DNA from: Clostridia bacterium
Lineage (GTDB): Bacteria; Bacillota; Clostridia; Saccharofermentanales; UBA5734
Assembly (NCBI GenBank): GCA_040772725.1
Contig: JAXGXR010000001.1
Location: forward strand, 9,977-73,976
Direction: 5' to 3'
Length of the DNA stretch: 64,000 nucleotides
Below the pieces are notes generated by a model. The model did not search any database and was not told the origin of the DNA. It saw only the letters and a program-made list of their open reading frames with translations. Every line of letters begins with the position of its first letter. The stretch's first letter is position 1. The position numbers and the translations under genes were made by a program. Positions 73-61,733 of this stretch are shown one piece after another.

Positions 73-322
73 CGTACGATTTTGGAAATTGTTTTCCGGA
101 CTTGCAAGAATGGAAGCGCTATTTGAGTGATTGAGCGCTGTCCATTTCGATAAATATAATCACACGTTTTCGATTGAATTTGGAGTGTTAAATTGCGGTT
201 CCTTCTGAATGCGTGTTCAGAACAGATATGATATGGAAATGACCCGTCGGAAGATCAAACATCGGTTGGATGTGATTACGCCTTTGAATCGGGCTATCTG
301 ATTGCAAAATCGCACCTGTCAG

Positions 323-440
323 AGTTAGTTCCGTTCGTTTCTGTGTTGGTGCCTGGCTCGCTTTCGGTACTGAAAACGGCGAGCCTTACAGCCGCAACGG
401 ATATCGAACGATAGTTCCGATTTGATGTCTGGCACCGAAG
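323..440 (-). repeat. inverted-orientation copy (~1.3 units) of the intergenic hairpin repeat family seen at 9137-9690
   Basis: The reverse complement aligns by hand with the array unit (GGTGCCAGACAYC..GGAACT, GCGGCTGTAAG, AGTACCG..CGGAACT). It carries TAGTTCCG at 326-333 and 412-419, GGTGCCTGGC at 348-357 and CTGGCACCG at 429-437. Confidence 0.7.
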
Positions 441-449
441 CATGAATCC

Positions 450-458
450 TGTTATAAT
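450..458 (+). promoter_or_regulatory. extended -10 promoter (TGtTATAAT) for the DEAD-box helicase gene
   Basis: TG at 450-451 and TATAAT at 453-458, about 70 nt upstream of the ATG at 531. Confidence 0.4.
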
Positions 459-3030: not shown

Positions 3031-4359
3031 TCAGATCTTGTCCTTCAAGCCGACTCTCAGGATGAGGTTGACCACGATGCCCATCAGGGCAGCGGTCGCG
3101 ATCGCCGGGAGCTGGGCGCCGAAGAAGGGGATCATGCCGCCGGGGAAACCGTAGTTGCCACCGAGGCCGACGACCAGGATGGTGGAGATGACGGCGAGGT
3201 TTCTGGCATCGAACAGGTCGACCTTGCGGTTGATCATGATCGCGATGCCCTGGGCGCCGATGATGCCGAACAGGTAGACGCTGACACCGCCGATGACCGC
3301 GCCGGGAATGGTGTTGACGAGGTTGGACAGCGGGGTGAAGAAGGAGATGATCATGGTGATGATTGCTGCCGCGCCAAGCACGTGGACAGAGAAGTTGCGG
3401 GTGATGGCCATGGTGCTCAGGTTTTCCCCGTAGTTGGTACCGGCCGGGCCACCGAACATCGAGGAGACGATGTCGCCAATGCCGTCGCCGATCAGGTTCA
3501 GACCCAGGCGATCTTTGATATTGTAGCTTTTCTTGCCCTTTTGCTCGGCCAGGTGATCAACATAGATGTCGAGCTGGTAAAGGTGGGCAGTGGACTCGGG
3601 GATGGTGGCGATGGCGATCGGCATGATGGCCGCGACCGCGACCCAGCTGACCTTGGGGAAGGTGAAATGCGGGACCGCGATGATATCGCCGGCGAAAACC
3701 GAGCTGAAGTCGATCACGCCAAAGGCCAGGGCAGTCACATAGCCGACAATGATGCCGAACAGGATCGGCAGCTGGCCCCATGTACCTTTCAGGTAGACGG
3801 AGAAGAGCATGGTGGCGAACAGGGTGACGAGCGCGATGACCCACGCGACGTTCTGGGCATTGCCGGTCGCGCCGTTGCCGGCAGCGCCTGAGATGGCGGT
3901 TCCGGCCAGCGAGATGCCAATGACGATGGCGATGGAGCCGGTGACCGTCGGCGGCAGGACCTTTTCAATCTTGTCCGAGCCGAAGGCGTTGATGATCAGG
4001 CCGGCCGCGATGGAGACGAGACCGGACATGATGACACCGAACTGGGCCTGGGAGATCAGGGCGTCCTCGGCGACCTTGCCGAATTCACGCGCGCCGGTGA
4101 TGGAGACGATGGCAGCGATGTAGGAGAAACTGGAGCCGTAGTAAAGGGGGATCTTGCCGCGGGTGACCAGCAGGAAGCAGATCGTGGCGAGGCCGCTGGC
4201 AAAAATGGTGGTGGAGACGTGGAATCCGGTGAGAAGGGCGACGAGTACAGTGGCGGGAAACATGACCAGGATCTGTTGAAGAGCAAAAAGGATCATTTTC
4301 CAGATCGGGGGCTTTTCGTCAGGCAGATACCCGACAACGGTCTTGGGTGCTTGACTCAT
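3031..4359 (-). CDS. NCS2-family nucleobase:cation symporter (uracil/xanthine permease-like)
   Basis: 442-aa polytopic membrane protein with an N-terminus and glycine-rich helices typical of UraA/PyrP-type permeases. GGAGGA SD. Confidence 0.9.
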   Translation of the reverse strand: MSQAPKTVVGYLPDEKPPIWKMILFALQQILVMFPATVLVALLTGFHVSTTIFASGLATICFLLVTRGKIPLYYGSSFSYIAAIVSITGAREFGKVAEDALISQAQFGVIMSGLVSIAAGLIINAFGSDKIEKVLPPTVTGSIAIVIGISLAGTAISGAAGNGATGNAQNVAWVIALVTLFATMLFSVYLKGTWGQLPILFGIIVGYVTALAFGVIDFSSVFAGDIIAVPHFTFPKVSWVAVAAIMPIAIATIPESTAHLYQLDIYVDHLAEQKGKKSYNIKDRLGLNLIGDGIGDIVSSMFGGPAGTNYGENLSTMAITRNFSVHVLGAAAIITMIISFFTPLSNLVNTIPGAVIGGVSVYLFGIIGAQGIAIMINRKVDLFDARNLAVISTILVVGLGGNYGFPGGMIPFFGAQLPAIATAALMGIVVNLILRVGLKDKI

Positions 4360-5762: not shown

Positions 5763-8567
5763 ATGCAGCATCAGACGCGCACCATGAGCAAGACCCGACA
5801 GTTGTTTCATCAGAACCGATCGCTCTTCTTTTCGTTCCTGTTTCCATTTGTCATCCTGGCCGCCGCCTTTTTCAGCCGGGCTGTCTTTCCGATCGGCGAC
5901 CGCAACATCCTGACGATCGACCTGTATCACCAGTACGCACCGTTCATTGTCGAGCTTCGGGAGAAACTGACATCCTTTTCCAGCCTGTTTTACACCTGGA
6001 ACGGTGGGCTGGGCACGAACTTCTGGTCGCTTTTCGCCTATTACCTGGCCAGCCCGCTCAACATCCTGATCGTCCTTTTCCCGCCGGCTTTCCTGACTGA
6101 AGCGATCCTGCTCCTGGTCCTGGTCAAGATCGGCCTGGCCGGCACGACCTTCGCCGCCTTCCTCAAGGGCGTGAGGCAGATGACGGGTAGCGCGCCGGTC
6201 GCCTTTGCCACGATGTACGCCCTGTCCGGCTACACCCTGGCCTATTTCTGGAACATCATGTGGCTGGACAGCCTGTTTCTGCTGCCGCTGGTCATGCTCG
6301 GCCTTCACCGGCTGGTCCGTGAAAAACGGTTCGTGCTCTATGTGGTGTCGCTGGCCTTTGTGATCTACACCAACTATTACATGGCGTTTTTTGTCTGCCT
6401 GTTCACTGTGCTCTATTTCCCGGTCTGCCTGTTTTCCAACCTGACCTTCCACAAGCCGGGTCGACTCATTGGCGCGACCGCCCGGTTTGCCGGCGCGTCT
6501 TTGCTGGCCGGCGGCCTGGCCTCGGTGCTGCTGCTGCCGACATTCTTTTCATTGCGCCTGACTTCGGCGGCCGGTGACACGTTCCCGAAATCCATCAACC
6601 ACTATTTTGACCTGTTTGACTTCATCAGCCAGCATTATGTCCTGACACCGCCCTCGATCCGAGAGGGGATGCCGAACATGTACGGAGGCCTGGCTGTCCT
6701 GATCCTGCTGCCGGTGTATTTCCTCAGCAAGTCGATTCCGCTCAGGGAAAAGCTCTGGCACATGGGACTGACCTTTGTCCTTATCCTCAGCTTCAACATC
6801 GATGTGCTCAATTTCATCTGGCATGGCATGCATTTTCCCAATCAGCTGCCATACCGCAACTCGTTTGTATACATTTTCCTGGCCTTGTCGATGGCGGCAC
6901 CCGCGTTCATGCGCCTTCGTGAATTTTCCGGTAAACAGATCGGGGCCATCGGGGCCGGCCTGGCCTTGCTGGTGGTTCTGTCCCAGAAGCTCAATGACAA
7001 GCAGCCAACGATTGTCAGCCTTTACGTGACGCTCGCCTTCATTGTCGTCTACCTGGCGATCCTGACCGTCGACCGGGTCGTCCACATGACCCGCCAGGAA
7101 TTCGCGGTCGCTTTCCTGCTGGTGATCCTGACGGAACTGACCTTGAACACATTCCTGATGATGCACAAGGTGGACACCACCGAATACCTGTCCCAGCGCG
7201 ATGGCTATCTGAGCGGGCGGGAAGTGGCCCAGATCCGGGAGCAGTTGACGATCATCGAAGAAGTGGAGCCTGACCCGCAATTTTATCGTGTCGAGATCCT
7301 GGAGCCCCGGACGATCAACGATCCGTTCCTGTATTCCTTCCGCGGGCTGTCGATCTTTGCCTCGACCGTGCCGACCAAACCGGTCCGCCTGTTTGAGAAC
7401 CTCGGCTTCCACAGCAACGGCATCAACAGCTACAAGAACGAAGGATCGACCATTCTGCTGGACACGATCTTCTCCATCGAATACCTGATCCATCGCGCTC
7501 CCAAAACCGATGACCGGCTGCGGGAGGTTTTTGCTTCGACTGACGAGATCACGGTCTATCGCAATCCGTTCGTATCCTCGATCGGGTACTGGGTACCGCA
7601 GGAGGTCACGAACTGGTACAGTTATGCCGGTAGTCCTTTCGAAGCCCAGAACAGTCTGTTGGCGCACATGACTCGCAAAGACCCGGTACTGATGACACTT
7701 CCGCTTTCGCCTGCATCTCAGGCCAACCTGACGTTCAGCGGCACACCGGACCAGTATTTCTCCTTCACCCGGTCAAACGCCGACCTTGCGTCCACCGCGC
7801 GCGTGAATGTGGAAAACCCGATCGACCAGCAGGTGTACCTATACCTCGATATCCCGGCGAACGTGGCCGAAAGCGGCACGGTTCGTGTCGGCGAGCGGAC
7901 CATCGGCTTCAACGCGGCCAGGGCGACTGTGATCGACCTGGGGCATTGCCTGGCTTCCGAGCCGATCGTGGTTGAAATCGGTTACAAAAGCGGATCGGCC
8001 CAATCGAGCTATTTCGAACTGTTCGCCTGCGGACTGGAACGCTCGGCCATGGAACGGGCTGCCGATGACTTGAAAGCCCAGGCCATGGAGATCACCCGGT
8101 TTACAGACCGGCGGGTGGAAGGCACGATCCAGGCTCCGGAGGACGGGTATGTCCTGATGACCATTCCCTTTGACGCCGGATGGAAGATCCAGGTCGATGG
8201 CCAATCGGTCGAGACAAAAGCGCTCGATGACGGACTGGTTCTGTTCGACATCCCGAAGGGCACCCATCAGGTGACGATGCACTTCACACCTGACAAACTG
8301 TTGCTCGGTGCCGGCATCTCCCTGGTGTCCCTGATGGTGCTCACACTGCTCACCATGATCCAGCGCCGAAAAGATCGCCATCGTCGATCCATGGGATTCA
8401 TCCCAGGAATCGAACGCCCCGTCCCGGTCCGGGTCGGACTGGCCCACGAGGATTTGCCGGCAGAAAATCAATCGCCACCGATCATTGAAGAGGCAGGTGC
8501 CGATTCCCCTGCGGCAGCAGAAGCGCCCTCTGAAGCCAATCCTCAAGAACCGGACGATGTGGTATAA
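5763..8567 (+). CDS. YfhO-family polytopic membrane protein (glycosyltransferase-like)
   Basis: 934 aa with many TM helices. The N-terminal FPIGDRNILTIDLYHQYAPF signature is typical of YfhO. AAGGAG SD. Confidence 0.85.
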   Translation: MQHQTRTMSKTRQLFHQNRSLFFSFLFPFVILAAAFFSRAVFPIGDRNILTIDLYHQYAPFIVELREKLTSFSSLFYTWNGGLGTNFWSLFAYYLASPLNILIVLFPPAFLTEAILLLVLVKIGLAGTTFAAFLKGVRQMTGSAPVAFATMYALSGYTLAYFWNIMWLDSLFLLPLVMLGLHRLVREKRFVLYVVSLAFVIYTNYYMAFFVCLFTVLYFPVCLFSNLTFHKPGRLIGATARFAGASLLAGGLASVLLLPTFFSLRLTSAAGDTFPKSINHYFDLFDFISQHYVLTPPSIREGMPNMYGGLAVLILLPVYFLSKSIPLREKLWHMGLTFVLILSFNIDVLNFIWHGMHFPNQLPYRNSFVYIFLALSMAAPAFMRLREFSGKQIGAIGAGLALLVVLSQKLNDKQPTIVSLYVTLAFIVVYLAILTVDRVVHMTRQEFAVAFLLVILTELTLNTFLMMHKVDTTEYLSQRDGYLSGREVAQIREQLTIIEEVEPDPQFYRVEILEPRTINDPFLYSFRGLSIFASTVPTKPVRLFENLGFHSNGINSYKNEGSTILLDTIFSIEYLIHRAPKTDDRLREVFASTDEITVYRNPFVSSIGYWVPQEVTNWYSYAGSPFEAQNSLLAHMTRKDPVLMTLPLSPASQANLTFSGTPDQYFSFTRSNADLASTARVNVENPIDQQVYLYLDIPANVAESGTVRVGERTIGFNAARATVIDLGHCLASEPIVVEIGYKSGSAQSSYFELFACGLERSAMERAADDLKAQAMEITRFTDRRVEGTIQAPEDGYVLMTIPFDAGWKIQVDGQSVETKALDDGLVLFDIPKGTHQVTMHFTPDKLLLGAGISLVSLMVLTLLTMIQRRKDRHRRSMGFIPGIERPVPVRVGLAHEDLPAENQSPPIIEEAGADSPAAAEAPSEANPQEPDDVV

Positions 8568-8617: not shown

Positions 8618-9001
8618 ATGGACACAAACAAGAGTTTTTATCGCTGCAGCATTTGCGGAAACATTGTCGGCCTGATCCAGGATGGCGGCGGGGAACTCGT
8701 CTGCTGCGGACAGCCCATGGATCTGCTCAAGGCCAACACGACCGACGCCGCGACAGAGAAGCATGTTCCTGTCCTGACCCGTAACGGCAATAATCTGCAT
8801 GTCGAAGTTGGCAGCGTCGCCCATCCGATGGTCGCCGAACATTACATCCAGTGGATCTGCATCGCCCAGGGCAATCTCACCCAGCGCACCGCGCTTGATC
8901 CGGGCGATCCGCCGGTGGCTGATTTCGTGATCTGCGACGGACCGGTTGTCGTCTACGAGTACTGCAACCTCCATGGATTGTGGAAAGCGGAGCTCGAATA
9001 A
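8618..9001 (+). CDS. dfx: desulfoferrodoxin (class I superoxide reductase)
   Basis: N-terminal CxxC...CC desulforedoxin-like site (CSICGN, VCCGQPM), KHVPV, and His/Cys ligands of the SOR centre. AAGGAGG SD. Confidence 0.92.
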   Translation: MDTNKSFYRCSICGNIVGLIQDGGGELVCCGQPMDLLKANTTDAATEKHVPVLTRNGNNLHVEVGSVAHPMVAEHYIQWICIAQGNLTQRTALDPGDPPVADFVICDGPVVVYEYCNLHGLWKAELE

Positions 9002-9092
9002 ACATCCTTTGCCCGGTTGTTGATCGGCCAGCCGCCGTTCAGACGGTGACCCATCAGCAAGTGTAAGATGATCCGATTCCAGCCATATGCAA

Positions 9093-9129
9093 AACTGCCG
9101 GACGCGAAGTAGCGTCCGGCAGTTTTTTT
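9093..9129 (+). terminator. intrinsic terminator of dfx
   Basis: A 13-bp stem, AACTGCCGGACGC (9093-9105) with GCGTCCGGCAGTT (9112-9124), followed by a T7 run. Confidence 0.85.
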
Positions 9130-9136
9130 GCGTGTG

Positions 9137-9690
9137 GGTGGTGCCACGGGCGCGGGTGGTGCCATGGGCGGTGCCACGGGCGGTGCCAGACACCGATTCA
9201 GAACTTCGTCAAAGACACTCCCCGTAAGCCCTGAGCCTGTAGTATCACAAGCCCTGGGCCACCATTAGTTCCACCCCGGTGCCTGGCACGATTACGGTAC
9301 CCCATAAAGTGGACACATAGTTAGTTCCGTTTGTTCCGCAGTCAGTGCCAGTTGCCGATTCGGTACTAATTCTTGTACTCTCCTAAAAACCGCTGCGGCT
9401 GTAGTATTACAGAACATGACGCCGCGCTAGTTCCGAAATCCCGTCTGGCACCGCTCAGTGGGCGGTGCCAGACACCGATTCAGAACTTCGTCAAAGACGC
9501 AACCCGTAAGCCCTGAGGCTGTAATGTCACAAGCCCTGTAACCGCACGAGTTCCGTTCGCGCGCCTGGCACCGATTTCGGTACCCGGCGGAACGAACTGC
9601 CGAACGCTCATGCTATGATGACAGGGTTTATTTTCGCGCTTGAAAGTATGTGAGGCACCATTGCTATTTAACGCTTAGTTGATATAAGGT
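9137..9690 (+). repeat. array of an unclassified hairpin-forming intergenic repeat: three degenerate units, a 12-bp GGTGCCAYGGGC mini-repeat and a 3' tail
   Basis: 79-bp direct repeat 9178-9256 vs 9460-9538 (6 mismatches by hand alignment). A diverged third copy lies at ~9343-9452. Recurrent blocks are GGTGCCAG/CTGGCACC, CGATTCGGTAC/CAGAACT, GCTGTARTRTYAC and TAGTTCCG. No credible ORF. Confidence 0.8.
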
Positions 9691-9701: not shown

Positions 9702-9730
9702 TTGACAATCTGGTGTTCTGTTTCTATAGT
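9702..9730 (+). promoter_or_regulatory. sigma-A type promoter of the TrmB-like regulator / lysA operon
   Basis: TTGACA (9702-9707), 17-nt spacer, TATAGT (9725-9730). Confidence 0.6.
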
Positions 9731-9764
9731 GTTCCTAATAAGTAATACTAAGGAGCGACAGGAA

Positions 9765-10475
9765 ATGGACCTGATCCAGGCACTGATGGAAACCGGCCTG
9801 ACCCGGCATGAAGCCAGACTTTTCGCCCTTTTGTCTTCAGAAGGGGCCATGTCCGGCTATGAGGCGGCCAAGCTGACCGGCATGTCGCGATCCAACGCGT
9901 ACATGGCGCTTTCCGGGCTGGCGGACAAAGGCGGCGCTTTGCGTATCGAAGGTGACGTAGTGCTTTATGAAGCCGTTCCGGCCCATGAGTACGCGGCCAA
10001 CAAACGCCGCTATCTGGCGGATGTCCTGCGGACCATCGAGCAGGACATGCCCCATCTCCGGTCTTCGGTGCAGCCTTACCTGACGATCCGTGGACGGCGC
10101 CACATTCTTGATAAAATCAGGAACATGGTCGATCAGGCTCGCGAACGGGTTTACATCCTGCTTCCCATTGCGGAATTGCGCCAGGTGCTCCCGGAACTGT
10201 CTTCGCTCAAGGACAGGGGAGGCAAGGTGGTCATCCTGACCGCCCCACCTTTCACCATGAACGATGTGACTGTCCACCATCGCGACGCGCGCGATGCCCA
10301 GGTCCGTCTGATTGTCGATTCATCTGAAATCCTGAGCGGTGAAATCGGCACATCAGCCGAGTCGACCTGTCTTTATTCGCGCGACGACGTTCTGGTCGGA
10401 CTGTTCAAAGAAGCCATGAAAAATGAAATCAACCTGATCGAACTGAAGCAGGAGAAACGAGGGAAAACAACATGA
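9765..10475 (+). CDS. TrmB-family transcriptional regulator
   Basis: N-terminal winged-HTH typical of TrmB (GLTRHEARLFALL...GYEAAKLTGMSRSNAYMAL). Start set at the ATG at 9765, which has an AAGGAG SD. Confidence 0.85.
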   Translation: MDLIQALMETGLTRHEARLFALLSSEGAMSGYEAAKLTGMSRSNAYMALSGLADKGGALRIEGDVVLYEAVPAHEYAANKRRYLADVLRTIEQDMPHLRSSVQPYLTIRGRRHILDKIRNMVDQARERVYILLPIAELRQVLPELSSLKDRGGKVVILTAPPFTMNDVTVHHRDARDAQVRLIVDSSEILSGEIGTSAESTCLYSRDDVLVGLFKEAMKNEINLIELKQEKRGKTT

Positions 10476-12385: not shown

Positions 12386-12455
12386 ATGGCCGATTGACAT
12401 GGCCAATCGAGGAAATGACGTTTCAATTAAAATAAAACAAATGTTCTTATATTGC

Positions 12456-12484
12456 TTGACAGCAAGCCTCCAGATGCGTATACT
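12456..12484 (+). promoter_or_regulatory. sigma-A type promoter
   Basis: TTGACA (12456-12461), 17-nt spacer, TATACT (12479-12484). Confidence 0.6.
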
Positions 12485-12518
12485 GACAATAACGAACATA
12501 TGTTTGGAGGCGTGCAAA

Positions 12519-12932
12519 ATGACAATGCTGAATGGACTGTTCTTCCTGATGATCGGACTGGCCGGTCTTGCGACCGCACTGATCCTGGCTGATCTCAACA
12601 GGCGGGAGGATGAAGCGCTGGCTGAGTTGGCTCGTCTTCAGTCCGGAAAGCCTGCCATGGCCGCTTCGCGGAGCAGTCACAGACGTTCATGCGATCATGC
12701 ATATGTTACGGAAGGTCTATCATCATCAGGGCACATGAATTACGCCACAATGGAACGGTCCGGTAGACTGGATGATTTCCTGACCGTCGCAGATATGAAA
12801 CAGGAATCAGATCACAGATGTCGTGATAGAGCAGTCAGCTTTGATTTTGCCATCTTCGGGAAACAGACAGATGCAAACATGGCAGGTGCAGAGGGTCACT
12901 CATTCGCGTCAGACGCAGAACACTGTGCCTGA
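12519..12932 (+). CDS. hypothetical protein with one N-terminal TM helix
   Basis: ATG at 12519 preceded by a GGAGG SD. Hydrophobic N-terminus LFFLMIGLAGLATALILA. I recognise no family. Confidence 0.5.
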   Translation: MTMLNGLFFLMIGLAGLATALILADLNRREDEALAELARLQSGKPAMAASRSSHRRSCDHAYVTEGLSSSGHMNYATMERSGRLDDFLTVADMKQESDHRCRDRAVSFDFAIFGKQTDANMAGAEGHSFASDAEHCA

Positions 12933-13185
12933 CATGTCATGACCGTGTTAAAAAACATTTTGCATTCTATTGTCATTTCATCGTAAAATATGTCTGACAT
13001 GAAAGGCTTGCCAACTTGTCAGACTACGGTTTCGATGACTTCCCCATGTTTGATTGATGTATTCATTGACGAAACAGTTGTCAGCACAGAACAATTGGCA
13101 CCCACCATGGCACTCAATTTTAGATATCAATCATGTGTGGACCCTCGGGTCGCAAGCATGTCAGTGTCAGCCAGGAGGTGCCCAG

Positions 13186-13953
13186 ATGCCAGACCTGAAA
13201 TCTGTTCTGGGACAATTGATGCAACAAGAAGCTGATCTCAGTCAGCCGTCTGATGATCAGTGCGATGCATCATGGAATCGGATCAGTCAACTGATTGACC
13301 AAGTGGAGCAAGAGCGGGGAAGACCTCAGAAGTCATTCCCGAGTCTTGATTCATTCGATTCGCTTGACAACGAGGAATGGAATCCCAAGACAGCTTTTGA
13401 CGCCCGATCCACTCCGCGCAGTTTCTGGCGGTTGCCAACCCGCAGGCTGGCTGCAGCCATGCTGGCGGTGTTTTTTGGCGTCGTTGCCTTGCTGGCCGGC
13501 GCACTGTATCTGCAGAGCAGCGGTATCCTGCCCGGCCCGACATCAACAACGATCATACTGACCGACGAACCAATCCCCCTGGCAGATCCTGATGCTCCGA
13601 TACCGGACCTGGACCAGCTGGCCGTTTTCCTGTCATCATCCGACAGCACACAGCTGCTTGAGGTGCCAACGCTGTCACCAGACAGCCAGAAAGCAGCTGT
13701 TGAAGCATTGGTCAGCCGCAACTGCATGACCATCGCCCGGAGTGGCGTGTCTGCCTTGCCCGGTACGGCTTACTGGGTTGCCCGTAAACTTGCCGACCAA
13801 TCAGACAAGATGCTTGTCCTGGTCGCACGGGAACGTGAAGGTGAGATTGGCTGGCAGACGATCTTCCAGATCTTGCCCAAGTCATCCGACTTGCCTTCCG
13901 GGAAAGCACTGGACGAATATTTTTCCAGACAGCTAGCCAAGCATACCGACTGA
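13186..13953 (+). CDS. hypothetical single-pass membrane protein (anti-sigma-like topology, no recognisable domain)
   Basis: ATG at 13186 with an AGGAGG SD. Central TM helix LAAAMLAVFFGVVALLAGALYL. I recognise no family. Confidence 0.55.
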   Translation: MPDLKSVLGQLMQQEADLSQPSDDQCDASWNRISQLIDQVEQERGRPQKSFPSLDSFDSLDNEEWNPKTAFDARSTPRSFWRLPTRRLAAAMLAVFFGVVALLAGALYLQSSGILPGPTSTTIILTDEPIPLADPDAPIPDLDQLAVFLSSSDSTQLLEVPTLSPDSQKAAVEALVSRNCMTIARSGVSALPGTAYWVARKLADQSDKMLVLVAREREGEIGWQTIFQILPKSSDLPSGKALDEYFSRQLAKHTD

Positions 13954-20770: not shown

Positions 20771-21538
20771 TTATTCTTCGTCGTCGTAATCCTGGTTGAA
20801 GCCGGACGGCATGTCATCCGGGTTGCTTTGTGATGTGGCTGTCAGCCGGCGCAGTTCGGCGATTTCATGGCGGGTCAGGTGACGATACTGGCCATACGGT
20901 AGTTTCCCCAGATTGATGTGCATGATGCGAAGCCTGACCAGTCGGACAACCGTGTAGCCCAAGGCCTCGCACATCCGGCGGATCTGGCGGTTCAGCCCCT
21001 GGGTCAGGACGATGCGGAAGACCTTCGGGTGCTCCTGCCGGACCTGGCATGGGAGAGTCACGGTATCCAGGATCGGGACACCGGATGCCATCTGCGCCAA
21101 AAACCCGGGCGTGACCGGTCTGTCAACCGTCACCCGGTATTCTTTCTCATGTCGGTTATGACCACGCAGGATCTTGTTGACAATGTCACCATCGTTTGTC
21201 ATCAGAATCAGCCCCTCGGAATCGCGGTCGAGGCGGCCAATGGTGAAAATCCGCTTCGGATAGTTGATATAATCGATGATATTGTCATTTCTTCGCCGAT
21301 CGGACGTGCAGGTGATGCCGGTCGGTTTGTGCAAGGCCAGATAGACCGGTTCGTCAAGCGGGATGACCGGCTCTCCCTCAACCATGACAATCTGGCCGGG
21401 GAAGATACGCTGACCGACCTGGGCCGGCTGACCATCCACGGTGACCTTGTTTTCTGCGATCAGGCTGTCGGCCTGGCGTCGGCTGCAGCGGCCGGAGTCG
21501 GCGATGTATTTGTTCAGGCGAATGGATGGAACGGTCAT
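20771..21538 (-). CDS. RsuA/RluF-family rRNA pseudouridine synthase with an S4 domain
   Basis: S4 motif RLNKYIADSGRCSRRQAD and the catalytic GRLDRDSEGLILMTND. Confidence 0.9.
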   Translation of the reverse strand: MTVPSIRLNKYIADSGRCSRRQADSLIAENKVTVDGQPAQVGQRIFPGQIVMVEGEPVIPLDEPVYLALHKPTGITCTSDRRRNDNIIDYINYPKRIFTIGRLDRDSEGLILMTNDGDIVNKILRGHNRHEKEYRVTVDRPVTPGFLAQMASGVPILDTVTLPCQVRQEHPKVFRIVLTQGLNRQIRRMCEALGYTVVRLVRLRIMHINLGKLPYGQYRHLTRHEIAELRRLTATSQSNPDDMPSGFNQDYDDEE

Positions 21539-21939
21539 AGATCCGAAAATTCACGCATGACCGGAACCAGCTGGAGACTGCCGGAAGCGTCGACGGTGAT
21601 CACCGGCACCTCCGGACACTGGTCCTCCAGTGTGGCGATGAAGACACTGTTTCCGGGGTCAGGCGGCATGCCGACAAGTACGTAACTGACCGGATTGTCG
21701 ATCATATATGATGCGACCGTGTGGGCGGCGTTGTCACTGAAATAGACCAGCATCTCGGCGCCCTGTTCCTTGGCGACATTGAACAGATATTCAACTTCGT
21801 CGCTGGCCAGCCAGCGTTCAGCCTTCTTGGGACGGACACAGACAACCTTGAGGTCGATGCCCTCGAAATCGGCCAGAGACCGGCCGGCAAAAATCAGTCG
21901 ATCACAGGATTCCTGATCGGTGACACAGACAAGAACCAT
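21535..21939 (-). CDS. universal-stress-protein-like (KdpD N-terminal Usp-type) small protein
   Basis: MVLVCVTDQESCDRLI... alpha/beta Usp-like pattern. Start at 21937-39 with a GAAAGGGG SD. 4-nt overlap with the pseudouridine synthase gene. Confidence 0.6.
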   Translation of the reverse strand: MVLVCVTDQESCDRLIFAGRSLADFEGIDLKVVCVRPKKAERWLASDEVEYLFNVAKEQGAEMLVYFSDNAAHTVASYMIDNPVSYVLVGMPPDPGNSVFIATLEDQCPEVPVITVDASGSLQLVPVMREFSDL

Positions 21940-22082
21940 TGAAGCAGCCCCTTTCCAAGCGTTGATTTGGATGCGAGCCAATGCCGTTGGCTGTCATCTC
22001 CAGTTTAGGGTCGGAATGTGTCGACATTATGTACGTATCACAACAATTTGGCGACGTTGCCCGACAAGTCCGGCTGCCATCG

Positions 22083-41312: not shown

Positions 41313-42545
41313 ATGATTTCAATCGCCATTTTCGGGTACGGTGTCGTCGGGTCAGGCGTGGCAGAAGTCTGCCGCATGAACGCGACTGTCATCCGCGAGC
41401 GCGTCGGCCGTGGCATCGATATCCGCTACATTCTTGATATTCGCGAATTTCCGGATGACCCGCTGGCCGACCGATTCACCAAGGATCCGGAACAGGTCCT
41501 GAAAGATCCGGATGTGTCCATAGTTGTCGAGACGATCGGCGGAGTCGGTTTCGCCTATGAAATGACAAAGCGGGCGCTCTCGGCCGGCAAGCATGTGGTC
41601 ACATCCAACAAGGAACTGGTCGCCAGGCACGGACCGGAACTGATGCGCCTGGCCCAGGCGCACAAGGTGAATTACCTGTTCGAGGCCAGTGTCGGCGGCG
41701 GCATCCCGATTATCCGACCACTGCACAAATGCCTCGCGGCCAATGTGATCAATCGCATCGTCGGCATTCTGAACGGGACGACGAACTATATCCTCACACG
41801 CATGGAAGAGGACGGTGTCGATTTTGACGAGGCGCTTCGGGAAGCGCAGGCCAAGGGCTACGCGGAGCAGAATCCGGCCGCAGATGTGGAAGGCAAGGAC
41901 GCTTGCCGCAAGATCGCCATTTTGTCCAGTATCACGCTGGGGGAATACGTTGATTCGGAAAAGATCCATACGGAGGGTATCACTTCGGTCACAAGCCGTG
42001 ACATGTCCTACGCGCGGGCGTTGCGCCGCAAACTCAAACTGCTTGGCACCTACCGTCGTGTCAATGGCGACCACGCACAAGTGATGGTGGCACCCATGCT
42101 GATCGACAAGCATCATCCGGTGGCTGTCGCCAGTGATGTCTTCAACGCGATCGAACTGGAGGGCAACGCGCTCGGCAGCGCCATGTTCTACGGTCAGGGG
42201 GCGGGCCGCATGCCGACAGCCAGCGCGGTAGTCGCGGATGTCATCGAGTGCGCGCTCCACCTGGACAAAGTGCCGCACATGATTTCCTGGCAGGACAATG
42301 GCCGGGACATCCTGATCGCCCATGATGACAGTCCGGTCCAGATGCTGCTGCGTGTTGACGGACACGCCCAGCTGCCTGTGATCGAGTCTTTTTTCTCGCC
42401 TTATGGTGTCCGCAGGCTTGAGAAACTGTTCAATGATGAAGAGGCTCTCCTGGTCGGATTGGACGGCAATCTGACCGAAGGGATGCTGGAGCATCTGATC
42501 CAGCCCTTCCTGAACGACCTGAAGGGAAGAATCCGTCTGTACTGA
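41313..42545 (+). CDS. hom: homoserine dehydrogenase
   Basis: GYGVVGSGV Rossmann motif, NGTTNYIL, and a C-terminal ACT-like regulatory domain. AAGGAGG SD. Confidence 0.93.
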   Translation: MISIAIFGYGVVGSGVAEVCRMNATVIRERVGRGIDIRYILDIREFPDDPLADRFTKDPEQVLKDPDVSIVVETIGGVGFAYEMTKRALSAGKHVVTSNKELVARHGPELMRLAQAHKVNYLFEASVGGGIPIIRPLHKCLAANVINRIVGILNGTTNYILTRMEEDGVDFDEALREAQAKGYAEQNPAADVEGKDACRKIAILSSITLGEYVDSEKIHTEGITSVTSRDMSYARALRRKLKLLGTYRRVNGDHAQVMVAPMLIDKHHPVAVASDVFNAIELEGNALGSAMFYGQGAGRMPTASAVVADVIECALHLDKVPHMISWQDNGRDILIAHDDSPVQMLLRVDGHAQLPVIESFFSPYGVRRLEKLFNDEEALLVGLDGNLTEGMLEHLIQPFLNDLKGRIRLY

Positions 42546-45021: not shown

Positions 45022-45051
45022 TTGCGGAAATCATAGCACAACTGATATAAT
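45022..45051 (+). promoter_or_regulatory. promoter of the DRTGG/HydS-like operon
   Basis: TTGCGG (45022-27), 18-nt spacer, TATAAT (45046-51). Confidence 0.5.
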
Positions 45052-45117
45052 CATTTCAAGTACAAACGAACTGAACGCGTGCGAAAATTTGGATAGGTTG
45101 AACAAAAAAATACGAAA

Positions 45118-45483
45118 ATGAGGGCTTTGCCTATGAAATTGATCGATTGCGTTGGTTTGCTGAAGGCAGAAGTGCTCGTTCCTGCCGATGACATGGACAT
45201 GGATATCAGGGTGGCTTGCGGAGCAGACCTGATGAGCGATGTCATGGCCTTTGCCTGCACGAACAACGAAATGCTGCTGACCGGGCTGGTCAATCCTCAG
45301 ACAATCCGGACGGCCGAGATGATGGATGTCAAGGTGATTGTGTTTGTTCGCGGCAAGACACCGCCGGAAAACATGGTGCGGCTGGCCAGTGAAAAAAGCA
45401 TCTGTGTCCTGTCTACGACCTTTCCCATGTTCACAGCCTGCGGTCTTCTCTACAATTCCGGGATCAAGGGCAAGGGGGAGTGA
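45118..45483 (+). CDS. DRTGG-domain protein (copy 1)
   Basis: ~120 aa with LLTGLVNPQTIRTAEMMD and VIVFVRGK patterns typical of DRTGG domains. An alternative start is at 45133. Confidence 0.8.
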   Translation: MRALPMKLIDCVGLLKAEVLVPADDMDMDIRVACGADLMSDVMAFACTNNEMLLTGLVNPQTIRTAEMMDVKVIVFVRGKTPPENMVRLASEKSICVLSTTFPMFTACGLLYNSGIKGKGE

Positions 45484-45486
45484 CTT

Positions 45487-45909
45487 ATCGACCCTGTCAA
45501 GCTTGATTTCGTCATTCGCGGTCAGGATTTCGTCAATGCCGGCGAAGCATCGAGCGGCACAAAAAAGGCACTGATGCGTCTCGGCGTTCCGCCGGCTGCC
45601 GTCAAACGGGCCGCCATCGCCATGTATGAAGCGGAAATCAACGCAGTCATCCACGCCAATGGCGGTCATGCGGAAGTTGAGATATTCAGCGACCATGTCG
45701 AGATCTGCATCAAGGACAACGGCCCGGGCATCCCCAATGTCGAGCTGGCCATGCAGGCCGGTTGGTCCACGGCGCCCGACATCGCGAGGGAAATGGGTTT
45801 TGGCGCCGGCATGGGCCTGCCGAACATCAAGAAAAATTCCGACAGTCTGAAAATCGAGACAGAAGTCGGACACGGGACAACCGTGCGCATCGAAATCGTC
45901 TTCCGATGA
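45487..45909 (+). CDS. RsbW/SpoIIAB-like serine kinase-type ATPase (HATPase_c_2), start codon unresolved
   Basis: AMYEAEINAVIHA, DNGPGI and GFGAGMGLPNIKK ATP-lid motifs. The first ATG is 45574, but the family-typical N-terminus (IRGQDFVNAGEASSGTKKAL) is encoded from 45484, directly after the in-frame TGA of the upstream gene. A GGGGGAG SD lies at 45474-80, and 45487 is an ATC codon. Confidence 0.6.
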   Translation: MDPVKLDFVIRGQDFVNAGEASSGTKKALMRLGVPPAAVKRAAIAMYEAEINAVIHANGGHAEVEIFSDHVEICIKDNGPGIPNVELAMQAGWSTAPDIAREMGFGAGMGLPNIKKNSDSLKIETEVGHGTTVRIEIVFR

Positions 45910-45946
45910 ACGCTTGTCCTCCTTTCCGTCCAGGAGGTTTCACATT

Positions 45947-47302
45947 ATGTCCAGGTTTCATTCCGTCCAGCTGAACCGTGACCTTTGCGTCGGCTGCACC
46001 ACCTGCATCAAGAAGTGCCCGACCGAAGCGATCCGGGTCAGGGATGGAAAGGCGAAAATCAATGACAATCGCTGCATCGACTGCAGTGAATGCATCCGCG
46101 TGTGTCCGCATCACGCGAAAAGCGCATCCATGGATTCCCTGGACCGCATGCAGGAATTCGACTACAATATCGCGCTGGCCTCGCCATCGCTCTATGCCCA
46201 GTTCGGCCCGCCGGCCGACCGTTTCATGGTGCTGGCCGCGCTCAAGAACATCGGATTTGACGATGTCTATGAAGTGGCGATCGGTGCGGACATCGTCACG
46301 GAGAACACGATCAGGCTGATGAAGGAACTGGGGAAGCGGGCACCCCGCCCCATGATCTCTTCCGCCTGCCCGGCGGTCGTCCGTCTGATCCAGATGCGCT
46401 TTCCGGGCTTGATTGAACACCTGGTTCCGTTCGACTCCCCCATGGAGGTGACCGCCAGCATCGCGCGCGGTGAGACCATTGTCAAGACAGGCCTGAAATC
46501 CGACCGGATCGGCATATTCTTCATCAGCCCCTGCCCGGCCAAGCGGACCGCGGTGGTCAATCCGCAGAGTTTCCAGCGTTCCCAGGTCGATGCGGCCGTG
46601 GCCACTTCTGAAGTGTATCCGCTGATCCTTTCCAAACTTGAAAAGATGGATCCCCAATCCGTCGAGGATTTCAAGCAGCATCAGCTGGCCCATGCTGGTG
46701 GTATCCGCTGGGGCTACATCGGTGGCGAATCCATGTCGCTCAACACGGAGAAATATCTGGCGGTTGACGGTATCCACAGTGTGATCTCCATTCTCGACGA
46801 GGTGGAGAACGAACGCCTGCGCGACATCGATTTCATCGAGGCGAATTCGTGCCTGGGCGGCTGCATCGGTGGAGCCCTGAACGTGGCCAACCGTTTTTCC
46901 GGACGGGCACGCCAGAGCGCTTATGTCCGGGCTGCCAACCAGCTGGCTCAGGCTCATCCGGAAAAATTCTTCGATGCCCGTCACATTGTCCTGCCGGAAT
47001 GGGAGCATCCGATCGAGCCCAATCCCGCGCTCAACCTTGACGAGGATATCGGCAAGGCCCTGGTTAAATACGAGATGATCGAACAGATCGTCAAGAACCT
47101 GCCGGGCCTCGACTGCGGGGCCTGCGGGGCGCCTGACTGCCAGGCGCTGGCCGAAGACATCGTACAAGGCGAAGCGACAGAAACGGACTGCATCTTCAAG
47201 CTCAAGGAACGGATCCGCCAGGTGGCTGCGGAGATGATCGCCCTTGAATCCGAAATGAACCGGCACACCTTGCCGGGCGATGTGAAAAAGGACACGAAAT
47301 GA
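45947..47302 (+). CDS. [FeFe]-hydrogenase-like sensory-type protein (HydS-like: 2x[4Fe-4S] ferredoxin domain, H-domain, C-terminal Cx2Cx4Cx16C)
   Basis: CVGCTTCIKKCP and CIDCSECIRVCP motifs. H-cluster-type motifs are SSACP, SPCPAK and EANSCLGGCIGG. The C-terminus carries DCGACGAPDC...DC. AGGAGG SD. Confidence 0.85.
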   Translation: MSRFHSVQLNRDLCVGCTTCIKKCPTEAIRVRDGKAKINDNRCIDCSECIRVCPHHAKSASMDSLDRMQEFDYNIALASPSLYAQFGPPADRFMVLAALKNIGFDDVYEVAIGADIVTENTIRLMKELGKRAPRPMISSACPAVVRLIQMRFPGLIEHLVPFDSPMEVTASIARGETIVKTGLKSDRIGIFFISPCPAKRTAVVNPQSFQRSQVDAAVATSEVYPLILSKLEKMDPQSVEDFKQHQLAHAGGIRWGYIGGESMSLNTEKYLAVDGIHSVISILDEVENERLRDIDFIEANSCLGGCIGGALNVANRFSGRARQSAYVRAANQLAQAHPEKFFDARHIVLPEWEHPIEPNPALNLDEDIGKALVKYEMIEQIVKNLPGLDCGACGAPDCQALAEDIVQGEATETDCIFKLKERIRQVAAEMIALESEMNRHTLPGDVKKDTK

Positions 47303-47658
47303 AAATTTCTGATGTTGTGTCCGGCCTGCCGGCTGCCTGGTTGACACCGGAACCCGATCATGAAGCATTGACTGCACGCGAGATCAACAGCGGCTATGCT
47401 TGTGATCTGCTCAGTCTGGTCATTGCCGGAGTCAAGCGGGACGAAGCCTGGTTCACCATTCTCAACAGCGTGAATGTGGTGGCTGTGGCGGTGCTCGCCG
47501 ATTGCCCGCTGGTCGTCCTGACCGAAGGAGTGGTCATGGACCCGGAAGTCGTGGCGCGGGCGGCCGACAAGGGCGTATGGGTGGTGTCCACAAAACTGTC
47601 GACCTATCGGGCCTGTGTTCGCCTGAACGCGCTGATCGAAGCTGATGACAAGGCATGA
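47299..47658 (+). CDS. DRTGG-domain protein (copy 2)
   Basis: 119 aa with a DRTGG-like pattern (LLSLVIAGVKRDEAWFTILNSVNVVAVAVLADCPLVVLTEG). ATGA overlap with the HydS-like gene. Confidence 0.8.
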   Translation: MKISDVVSGLPAAWLTPEPDHEALTAREINSGYACDLLSLVIAGVKRDEAWFTILNSVNVVAVAVLADCPLVVLTEGVVMDPEVVARAADKGVWVVSTKLSTYRACVRLNALIEADDKA

Positions 47659-61339: not shown

Positions 61340-61452
61340 GAGCGATCCCCCTTTTCATGCCTGGTGCATTTTGTCCAAATGATGTTGCTACATGATCACA
61401 TATTGATCATAGTGCCCTGCCGTGTTCCCTGTCAATCCGGACGCGCATCGAG

Positions 61453-61592
61453 CGAGTTCCGTTGCGGTGCCAGGCCCGATTTTAGAACCAGGCGGAACTA
61501 ACTGCCGGGCGCTCACAAGTGGTGCCTGAGTTTTGTTTCGCGCTTAAAAGTATGTGAGGCACCATTACTATTTCGCGCCTAATTTATAAGGT
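61453..61592 (+). repeat. single copy of the intergenic repeat family (paralogue of 9547-9690)
   Basis: Hand alignment with 9547-9690 over ~140 bp. The 37-bp core at 61537-61573 differs from 9633-9669 at 2 positions. A perfect 7-bp inverted repeat, AGTTCCG (61455-61) with CGGAACT (61493-99), is present. Confidence 0.75.
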
Positions 61593-61603
61593 ACGCAATC
61601 GAG

Positions 61604-61632
61604 TTTACAGATTCTGTCAATTTGGCTATGAT
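61604..61632 (+). promoter_or_regulatory. promoter of thrS
   Basis: TTTACA (61604-09), 17-nt spacer, TATGAT (61627-32). Confidence 0.6.
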
Positions 61633-61733
61633 GAGATGAGCAATAAAAGGGGTCCGACTGATTGCGACCCGTTTGATGATGGTCGCGCCTGTCGGGACCG
61701 GGACACGTTAAAGCGTTTATTGGAGGAATCACC

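Follow-up and report, generated by a model that had tools for sequence, protein, structure and literature searches.

A cluster of paired 35-bp palindromes, possibly REPIN-like, between dfx and a TrmB-like regulator gene of an uncultured Clostridia lineage

What fills the 560 bp of gene-free DNA that separates dfx from the gene of a TrmB-like regulator in an uncultured member of the Clostridia? The question arises in a 64-kb stretch, called the window here, of a contig of at least 1.38 Mb (JAXGXR010000001.1), whose threonyl-tRNA synthetase (ThrRS) is 79% identical to those of a Saccharofermentans metagenome-assembled genome (MAG) and of Oscillospiraceae-labelled MAGs. A preliminary description, made from the letters alone, had seen in the block an unclassified hairpin-forming repeat and had named three options for it, namely an element like the repetitive extragenic palindromes (REPs) or the miniature inverted-repeat transposable elements (MITEs), a protein-binding array, or a structured RNA. 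The first of these is now the best supported, the second is kept open by a conserved pair of sites at a helicase promoter, and the third is weak. In our estimate the odds are slightly better than even (a probability of about 0.55) that the block is a cluster like those of REPs, bacterial interspersed mosaic elements (BIMEs) or REP doublets forming hairpins (REPINs), and that it belongs to a new, lineage-restricted, non-autonomous family of palindromic repeats. On that reading it is an example of an already known kind of element, and the kind of system itself is not new.

The repeat family and its module

The block is confirmed to be a true repeat cluster and not a product of chance. Comparison of the window with itself shows that the family is the sole substantial repeat in the 64 kb, with 11 arms visible at three loci (320-436, 9136-9690 and 61453-61592), so that the further copies reported at 320-440 and 61453-61592 are real. 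The 79-bp direct repeat at 9178-9256 and 9460-9538 was found again with 6 mismatches (92.4% identity) at a spacing of 282 bp, and its weaker continuation extends over 112-126 nt at 83% identity. A third and more diverged copy is located at 9345-9451, 64% identical to the other two. The three copies correspond to long units that we call u1, u2 and u3 from left to right, and the pattern GTGCCWG-N9-YRGWACT-N61-AGTTCC-N10-CTGGCAC fits all three. With looser spacing (GTGCCWG-N9-YRGWACT-N35-65-AGTTCC-N8-12-CTGGCAC) the pattern also takes in a shorter copy at 349-435, which makes 4 matches in the window compared to 0.00 in shuffles, and the half-unit AGTTCC-N5-25-YTGGCAC has 5 matches compared to 0.11 expected. 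All 11 matches of the 24-nt arm described below fall in the three loci, the rest of the window being at chance level. The count of nine exact GGTGCC/GGCACC hexamers in 9137-9690 holds as well, and so does the absence of an open reading frame (ORF): inspection of the block gave no credible one, since the ORFs present are short, inconsistent in strand and without a plausible start context.

It is important to point out that the module differs from the one proposed initially. The arm consensus, built from 21-25 aligned arms of the window and its relatives, is 24 nt long and reads AGTTCCG-nnnn-GGTGCC-T-GGCACC (also written nnnAGTTCCGnnnnGGTGCCTGGCACC). Two opposed arms interdigitate to give the basic module, a 35-bp palindrome AGTTCCG-N4-GGTGCC-W-GGCACC-N4-CGGAACT with four boxes, which is clean in two contigs from relatives (L091 46-80 and L098 1569-1603, with 14-15 of 17 Watson-Crick pairs). 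The long units u1-u3 consist of the inner arms of two such palindromes and the spacer between them. This anatomy, or the 24-nt arm AGTTCC-N12-GGCACC, replaces the earlier picture of a 40-60-nt hairpin carrying GTGCC half-sites in its loop. Local hairpins of that size are weak in the window copies (fold z-scores of 0.2 to -1.05); sequence boxes at fixed spacing, and not local pairing, are what is conserved. The last 105 nt of the block (9586-9690) likewise turned out to be a separate tail module and not a further repeat unit.

The distance between the two palindromes of a pair takes few values. Centre to centre it is 96 bp (61-nt spacer) in u1, u2 and u3 and, independently, in contig L095 (3916/4012); it is 76 bp (41-nt spacer) in the pair u0 at the first locus of the window, in L098, at the helicase locus of L095 and in the metagenomic contig L005; and it is 34 bp in L091. 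Spacers of equal length show no detectable homology across genomes on the same strand (z < 2 for all 61-nt comparisons and for L005), with the exception that the u0 spacer resembles the reverse complement of the helicase spacers of L098 and L095 (z about 3). Within the window, the spacers S1, S2 and S3 of u1-u3 are mutually homologous (z = 3.3-11, with 3.3-3.9 for that of u2). The 24-nt arms bound units of 89-109 nt, as do the terminal inverted repeats of a MITE-type element shorter than 300 bp. The family is dispersed, and every copy seen in the window, L091, L095, L098 and L005 lies between genes.

The coordinates of the parts are collected in Table 1. The block is made up of the three units of 107-109 nt, a head of tandem repeats and the tail. 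In u1, the arm GGTGCC-N12-AGAACT (9182-9205) is followed by the 61-nt spacer (9206-9266) and the arm AGTTCC-N12-GGCACG (9267-9290), and the palindrome 9267-9301 is common to u1 and to the next module. The palindrome and tail at the right-hand end form a 144-nt composite (9547-9690) that is 79% identical to 61453-61592 upstream of thrS, a 38-nt block of the tail (9632-9669) being 95% identical to 61536-61573, and both copies of the composite stop exactly 11 nt before a -35 hexamer, that of trmB in one case and that of thrS in the other. The tail holds a decayed terminator-like segment, AACTGCCGAACGC ... GTTTATTTT at about 9593-9636, that resembles the dfx terminator. Since the start of the tail is 60-64% identical to that terminator (AACTGCCGGRCGC ... 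T-run), a terminator-like copy stands on both sides of the array. These comparisons show that the dfx-trmB array grew locally, its units being duplicated along with flanking sequence, as seen in u1/u3, the GGTGCC head and the second terminator-like copy. The tail common to two loci and the terminator-like copies at either end of the array further suggest that at least part of the spread occurred by segment duplication or recombination and not by precise transposition.

Both tail copies (9593-9636 and 61499-61537) open with a 5' half-stem and T-run like those of the dfx terminator, AACTGCCGGRCGC ... GTTTTnTTT, and the copy at the thrS locus is still terminator-like by score. This resemblance to 9091-9133 suggests that the composite was copied out of the dfx-trmB spacer. 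The opposite course, in which the tail would be native thrS upstream DNA copied to trmB, was considered and rejected; the GCGCTTAAA block shared with contig L158 is not significant (z = 1.9, reached by 32 of 500 shuffles).

Two observations on the boxes may be added. The core boxes (for example at 9182, 9278, 9296 and 9579; GGTGCC, GGCACC or GGTACC) all conform to GGYRCC, which is the BanI/HgiCI-type recognition sequence, and GGYRCC is not avoided in the window (67 observed, 45 expected). A near-match to the compact palindrome at 41618-41641 on the minus strand (AGTTCCGGTCCGTGCCTGGCGACC, 2 mismatches) lies in a coding region and lacks the right-hand arm; it was judged to be due to chance.

Table 1. 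Features of the three repeat loci and of the sites that border them (window coordinates).
Feature	Position	Strand	Remarks
Unit u0, two palindromes with centres at 354 and 430 (distance 76 bp) and a 41-nt spacer	320-436		Upstream of DEAD-box helicase gene
Helicase promoter, CTGGCA-18-(TG)TATAAT	429-458	+	Proximal-arm GGCAC box forms the -35 hexamer
dfx intrinsic terminator, bidirectional-looking	9091-9133	+	15-nt arms, 100% complementary; 6-nt loop, then T-run
Array head, tandem 18/12-nt repeats GGGYGGTGCCAY, four GGTGCC boxes	9136-9188		Tandem Repeats Finder (TRF): period 18 x 1.9, period 12 x 3.0
Long unit u1, palindrome centres 9188 and 9284, 96 bp apart	9182-9290		79 nt shared with u3 at 92% identity
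Compact 35-bp palindrome AGTTCC-N5-GGTGCC-T-GGCAC-N5-CGGTAC, centre 9284	9267-9301		9 of 17 Watson-Crick self-complementary
Short module AGTTCCG-N15-GTGCCAG-N4-CGATTCGGTACT	9316-9367		71% identical to 320-371 (pairwise alignment)
Long unit u2, older copy, centres 9350 and 9446, 61-nt spacer	9344-9452		64% identical to u1/u3
u2/u3 junction palindrome	9429-9487		29-nt arms, 76% complementary, 1 nt apart
Long unit u3, recent duplicate of u1, centres 9470 and 9566	9464-9572		Repeat comparison with u1
Compact palindrome, centre 9566, starts the 144-nt composite	9549-9583		Composite shared with thrS locus
Tail module, 105 nt	9586-9690	+	Repeat and pairwise comparison
Native sigma-70-type promoter of TrmB-like gene, TTGACA-17-TATAGT	9702-9730	+	Conserved in L091 and L093
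Composite copy (palindrome 61455-61499 and tail) between divergent HAAS-domain-gene and thrS promoters	61453-61592	+	Similarity to 9547-9690

Occurrence in relatives

We now turn to the relatives, which were found by protein search (TrmB 70-75% and ThrRS 82-97% identical) and are closer than the species-representative genomes. The gene order DEAD-box helicase, permease, ..., YfhO, Dfx, TrmB, decarboxylase, deaminase is kept in them. In the window, dfx (8618-9001, with Desulfoferrodoxin domains in Pfam) and the TrmB-like gene (9765-10475) are separated by 763 bp, compared to 140-170 bp in L091 and L093/L094. The inserted block is bordered on the left by the dfx terminator, which is orthologous to those of L091 and L093, and on the right by the trmB promoter; in L091 and L093/L094, which have no family motif here, the orthologous TTGACA-17-TATAGT promoter begins straight after the terminator. 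One contig lacks dfx. No motif was found either in the 327 bp before trmB in L092, where the upstream gene was not identified. Upstream of thrS, the element is absent from all three relatives examined (L156, L158 and L159), though the GAGTTTACAG promoter is conserved. Because these syntenic relatives are without the element at dfx-trmB and thrS, the comparison shows lineage-specific gains: two of the three loci occupied in the window lineage are empty in the closest available relatives.

The situation at the helicase gene is different, since u0 is orthologous to pairs in L091, L095 and L098, so that each of the four lineages (window, L091, L095-97 and L098-99) has a palindrome pair at the corresponding position, as against none of three at trmB and none of three at thrS. 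At the distal site GGTGCCTGGCAC is invariant, TGGCAC is invariant at the -35 position, and the DNA between them has diverged. The layout with GGCAC as part of the -35 region is also found in L091, L095 and L098, where the promoter reads CTGGCA-17/18-TGnTATAMT. In addition to its helicase-upstream pair, L095 has a weak site at 764-818 and a further, independent pair that follows immediately on a stop codon (3899-4029).

Searches further afield gave little. The strict unit pattern has no match in 185,579 species genomes, a collection without the host genome, and 1.2 Mb from order-level relatives gave only two chance-level matches. The relaxed unit pattern has 9 matches in JGI metagenomes, one of which, L005 (Ga0075012_10042711), is a genuine relative from an unrelated metagenome with another gene context (pair at 933-1043); the other 8 are ascribed to chance, including a repeated coding match that a six-frame reading suggests to be infB. 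Two patterns run against viral contigs hit no more often than chance allows, in what by eye look like coding sequences. No similar DNA came up when the block was compared with plasmids and phages by blastn, and a string search of the literature with the core palindrome returned only eukaryotic primers and other irrelevant matches. Rfam, searched on both strands, gave no match even at E <= 10; for the three loci and the L095 unit nothing exceeded 20.5 bits and the weak matches were to unrelated families, and only two tRNAs reached the gathering score in the window. The statement that the block fits no known family is borne out by these searches. The sampled density is 3 loci in the 64 kb of the window and 0-3 loci per 3-25 kb in the relatives, figures that do not lend themselves to simple extrapolation. 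From this comparative evidence the family is old in the clade, sparse in the relatives and amplified locally in the window lineage.

Some details of the individual copies are worth recording. The L005 pair, located between a divergent unannotated gene and a GNAT acetyltransferase gene, is the best-preserved member, with two 35-nt palindromes that are 86% complementary around the 41-nt spacer and paired boxes GGCTCC/GGAGCC that co-vary between them. Contig L091 starts inside the helicase-upstream element, which is consistent with repeats fragmenting short-read assemblies and would imply more copies elsewhere in these genomes. The sole Logan contig with the window's TrmB protein, L001, starts 18 nt upstream of the gene and 57 nt past the end of the repeat block; this break is at most compatible with the same cause. 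In the window, a promoter-like TTGAGC-18-TATAAT at 131-160 on the plus strand lies about 170 nt upstream of u0; if active, it would yield a helicase transcript that includes both palindromes within a long 5' untranslated region.

At the thrS locus, the composite is flanked by promoters at 61435-61406 (minus) and 61604-61632 (plus, thrS). The relatives carry a padR-family gene between the HAAS-domain gene and thrS (L156 9360-9677, L158 567-884, L159 9252-9653). The window has no PadR ORF at 61340-61440, and its orthologous TTGACA-18-TATGAT promoter (61435-61406, minus) is now directly upstream of the HAAS-domain gene. Since the relatives keep padR and the window only its promoter, the gene was deleted at the intergenic region that gained the repeat. 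Firmicutes often control thrS by a T-box. The thrS leader of the window (61632-61733) is only about 100 nt long and has no T-box or other Rfam match even at E <= 1.

Other genes of the window were also inspected. The 39 ORFs scanned with Pfam include no transposase, HUH enzyme, RAYT (REP-associated tyrosine transposase)/Y1 enzyme, integrase or cas gene, only housekeeping genes. Pfam gave nothing at E <= 1e-5 or E <= 1e-3 for several sizeable ORFs, of 280, 516, 177, 299 and 148 amino acids, located at 45031-47377 (minus), 12399-13953 (plus) and 21535-21981 (minus). Right after the -10 box of the TrmB-like gene, the sequence TATAGTGTTCC(A/T)AA(A/T)AAG(A/T)A..ACTA is kept in the window (9725-9750) and in relatives (L091 at about 7775-7800, L093 at about 3300-3330). 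This palindrome is a candidate autoregulatory operator, distinct from the GGTGCC family.

Weighing the explanations

In the REPIN-like explanation, the replicating unit would be a pair of the 35-bp modules or of the 24-nt arms AGTTCC-N12-GGCACC, with a spacer fixed at 41 or 61 nt. Given the constant spacer length, units of 111 or 131 nt could fold back on themselves over their entire extent. The boxes would be recognised by a trans-acting protein encoded elsewhere in the genome, either an HUH/Y1 RAYT-like enzyme acting on single-stranded foldbacks or some other transposase or recombinase. Clusters would then arise by tandem duplication or recombination, as for REPIN clusters, and the ancient copy at the helicase promoter would have been co-opted as a -35 region and upstream element. 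The capacity for foldback is genuine: the dyad symmetry of whole units amounts to 25-38 of 65 or 26-34 of 55 Watson-Crick pairs, compared to about 14-17 in shuffles, and the L095 and L005 units fold with z-scores of about -6 to -10 (the extreme being about -9.6). The boxes and their spacing are the conserved features, and the foldback may be under no selection of its own.

A number of findings weigh against this explanation. The palindromes of the window (centres 9284, 9566, 61472 and 354) are degenerate in their middle part, with 5-9 of 17 pairs. The arms of partners are not more complementary than those of non-partners (6.4 compared to 6.8 of 12), which led us to reject partner-specific co-evolution of the arms, and dyad symmetry of the spacer was rejected as a general feature, being significant only in L095. 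The covariation test described below involves 4 sequences, two of them near-duplicates, and a structure derived from the same sequences. No direct repeat or target-site duplication is seen at the unit borders, which are masked by abutting units and by divergence from the empty sites. The composite shared between two loci includes a tail that is apparently not part of the element, which favours segmental copying over clean transposition. Only three loci are seen, in 64 kb of the contig, and the scanned ORFs of the window gave no RAYT/Y1 or other transposase. The canonical REP foot GT[AG]G is missing at either foot, which here reads (T/A)AGTTCC; as this foot is absent and a RAYT gene was sought in the window only, membership in the RAYT-REP family cannot be claimed. 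Finally, the helicase pair is kept at about 75% protein identity with one box at -35, which fits a regulatory site equally well.

This last point leads to the view that the block is an operator array, which we consider unlikely. A transcription factor or nucleoid-associated protein would then bind the 35-bp palindrome in the form of two dimers joined into one, the pairs 76 or 96 bp apart would allow cooperative binding or looping, and the dfx-trmB array would titrate the protein or insulate the promoter. Such a role would account well for the helicase promoter, where the pair is kept in four lineages although the DNA between the sites has diverged beyond recognition, with GGTGCCTGGCAC invariant at the distal site and the proximal GGCAC at the -35 of a conserved promoter. 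It would also fit boxes that keep their spacing (AGTTCC-N12-GGCACC) while the bases between them lose pairing, and the position of all three window loci directly upstream of promoters. The distance classes (34, 76 and 96 bp between partners, 24 and 66 bp between units) differ by approximately whole helical turns, but the sites themselves are offset by about 0.15-0.3 of a turn, unlike simple same-face looping. The sites at trmB and thrS are missing in the relatives, so that no conserved regulon exists beyond the helicase gene, and past its -10 box the TrmB-like gene carries another conserved palindrome, unlike that of the family. The homologous 61-nt spacers and flanks of u1-u3 and the 105-nt tail of the composite point to duplication of whole segments instead of selection of sites; the L095 pair follows a stop codon and L005 has an unrelated context. 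The literature string search returned no known operator motif, and we know of none that matches the palindrome.

A structured RNA is more improbable still. Here, minus-strand transcripts of the units, 107-131 nt long, would each form an extended irregular hairpin around a central stem-loop and act as a small RNA or as an element of RNA stability or processing, and the array would be a set of tandem RNA genes. The minus strands of u1 and u3 do fold much better than the plus strands (-56.4 compared to -37.2 kcal/mol for u1 and -53.4 compared to -35.5 kcal/mol for u3, with minus-strand z = -4.7 and -4.1), and the L095 unit, right after a stop codon, reaches -71.7 kcal/mol (z = -9) on the sense strand of the genes beside it. 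However, the advantage in u1 and u3 stems from G:U pairs that form on one strand only and mostly reflects a single pair of paralogues; u0 and L005 favour the other strand, and under a shared structure the two strands of u2, L098 and L095 hardly differ. For the four units of the 61-nt type, a consensus long hairpin with a central stem pairs 90% of the cells, compared to 33-54% in slid controls. Both sides have changed in 7 pairs, compared to 3.3 +/- 1.3 in shuffles (reached by 4 of 500), and 5 of 8 pairs of the central helix are compensatory between the window and L095, but the covariation term is small (-1.1 and -0.6 kcal/mol). Partner-specific complementarity is absent and the window palindromes are decaying and not maintained. 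Neither strand has a promoter or terminator enclosing the units, the array having the dfx terminator on its left and the trmB promoter on its right. The minus strand runs antisense to the genes on either side, and Rfam has no match at E <= 10. Very improbable, finally, are three known kinds of array, all of which the anatomy speaks against. The imperfect inverted repeats of 107-131 nt, with two boxes per arm and a variable centre, bear a superficial likeness to integron attC sites (clusters of attC sites lacking integrases, CALIN), whose R/L consensus is RYYYAAC / GTTRRRY; the boxes misfit it, no cassettes lie between the units and no integrase is nearby. Constant 61-nt "spacers" between hairpin "repeats" recall CRISPR, but S1-S3 are mutually homologous and hence not unique spacers, the repeats alternate in orientation and vary in form and length, and the scanned neighbours include no cas gene. 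Repeats of a type III toxin-antitoxin RNA (ToxI-like) would call for a toxN-like or Tas-like gene beside the array, where dfx and the TrmB-like regulator gene stand instead.

Three narrower candidates were tried and rejected. A sigma-54 promoter was suggested by TGGCAC, but the GG-N10-GC spacing is never met, as TGGCAC-N5 is followed by CGGwAC and L098 is one base short. The spacing of a promoter for an extracytoplasmic-function (ECF) sigma factor (GGAAC...CGT) is inconsistent between the units. The motif is not an operator of the adjacent TrmB-like regulator either, being missing upstream of trmB in the relatives, where the other palindrome is found.

The regulatory and the repeat-based explanation could also be joined, and we offer this as a doubtful conjecture. 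The four-box palindrome would be the site of a DNA-binding or DNA-cleaving protein conserved in the Saccharofermentans-related clade, different from the canonical GTAG-reading RAYT. The ancestral paired site would act as the -35 and upstream control DNA of the cshA-like DEAD-box helicase gene, and in one lineage the same module would proliferate in a REPIN-like manner, a transition between regulatory site and selfish repeat that could have run in either direction. If true, this would be a REPIN-type system in Clostridia without the canonical REP foot.

Returning to the REPIN-like explanation, which we prefer, its confirmation genome-wide would add to the uncultured anaerobic Clostridia a family with a four-box palindrome and two quantised spacer lengths. 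The contrast between one or few copies in the relatives and recent local amplification here is a natural comparison, usable for studying spread and promoter co-option. In practice, such repeats may break short-read assemblies of the clade and leave large "empty" intergenic blocks that annotation pipelines do not explain. The finding opens no new class of biology.

Comparison with known systems

The paired operators of DNA-looping regions, such as lac O1/O3 and gal OE/OI, resemble the helicase locus in having two palindromic sites tens of base pairs apart, one of them over the -35, with conserved spacing and an intervening sequence that drifts. Unlike there, conservation of the sites in the relatives does not extend to the regions upstream of trmB and thrS, whole units including their spacers are duplicated, copies are found downstream of stop codons, and the regulator is only putative.

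MITEs with terminal inverted repeats, for example the Correia elements of Neisseria, can supply a -35-like hexamer to a downstream gene. As in them, inverted arms (about 24 nt) close off the unit of the present family (about 107-131 nt) at both ends, its position is intergenic beside promoters or terminators (in the window, in transcriptionally tolerated gaps: after a terminator, before a promoter or between divergent promoters, the first and third loci lying between divergent genes), and one copy does provide a -35-like hexamer. It differs in that a target-site duplication was not identified, that no cognate insertion sequence with the same ends was found in the plasmid, phage and viral searches or in the transposase-free window, and that its arms interdigitate into compact 35-bp palindromes, as ordinary inverted terminal repeats do not.

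The closest likeness is to REPINs, and the early dismissal of the REP/BIME comparison was premature, because the anatomy matches the published description of REPINs and their clusters (PMC3116915). In canonical REPs the hairpin foot carries a conserved 5' tetranucleotide, GT[AG]G (PMC6006769), and REPINs and REP-BIME systems with their RAYT (TnpA-REP) have been described in Pseudomonas and Enterobacteria (PMC3116915; PMC6006769). REPs are palindromes of about 20-40 nt, present in tens to hundreds of copies per genome, and the same REPs flank a single-copy RAYT (Y1 HUH) gene in an arrangement called a REPtron. Unlike these, the family has the foot (T/A)AGTTCC without GT[AG]G / C[TC]AC, a four-box palindrome with a GGTGCC-W-GGCACC core, a host from an uncultured Clostridia lineage, a low observed density and a non-palindromic 105-nt tail that travels with one module. 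In REPINs, the REPs are conserved and form inverted doublets at sharply preferred spacing that can fold into a hairpin, the length of the spacer and the foldback being conserved over its sequence (PMC3116915). The same traits recur here: short imperfect palindromes, of 35 bp, are confined to extragenic DNA, their doublets have sharply preferred spacings and can fold into one long hairpin, and the spacer is kept in length and hairpin capacity and not in sequence. As in REPIN clusters, ordered and near-identical units are duplicated together with their flanks and copies persist at orthologous positions, and as in BIMEs, sub-types and partial modules stand side by side.

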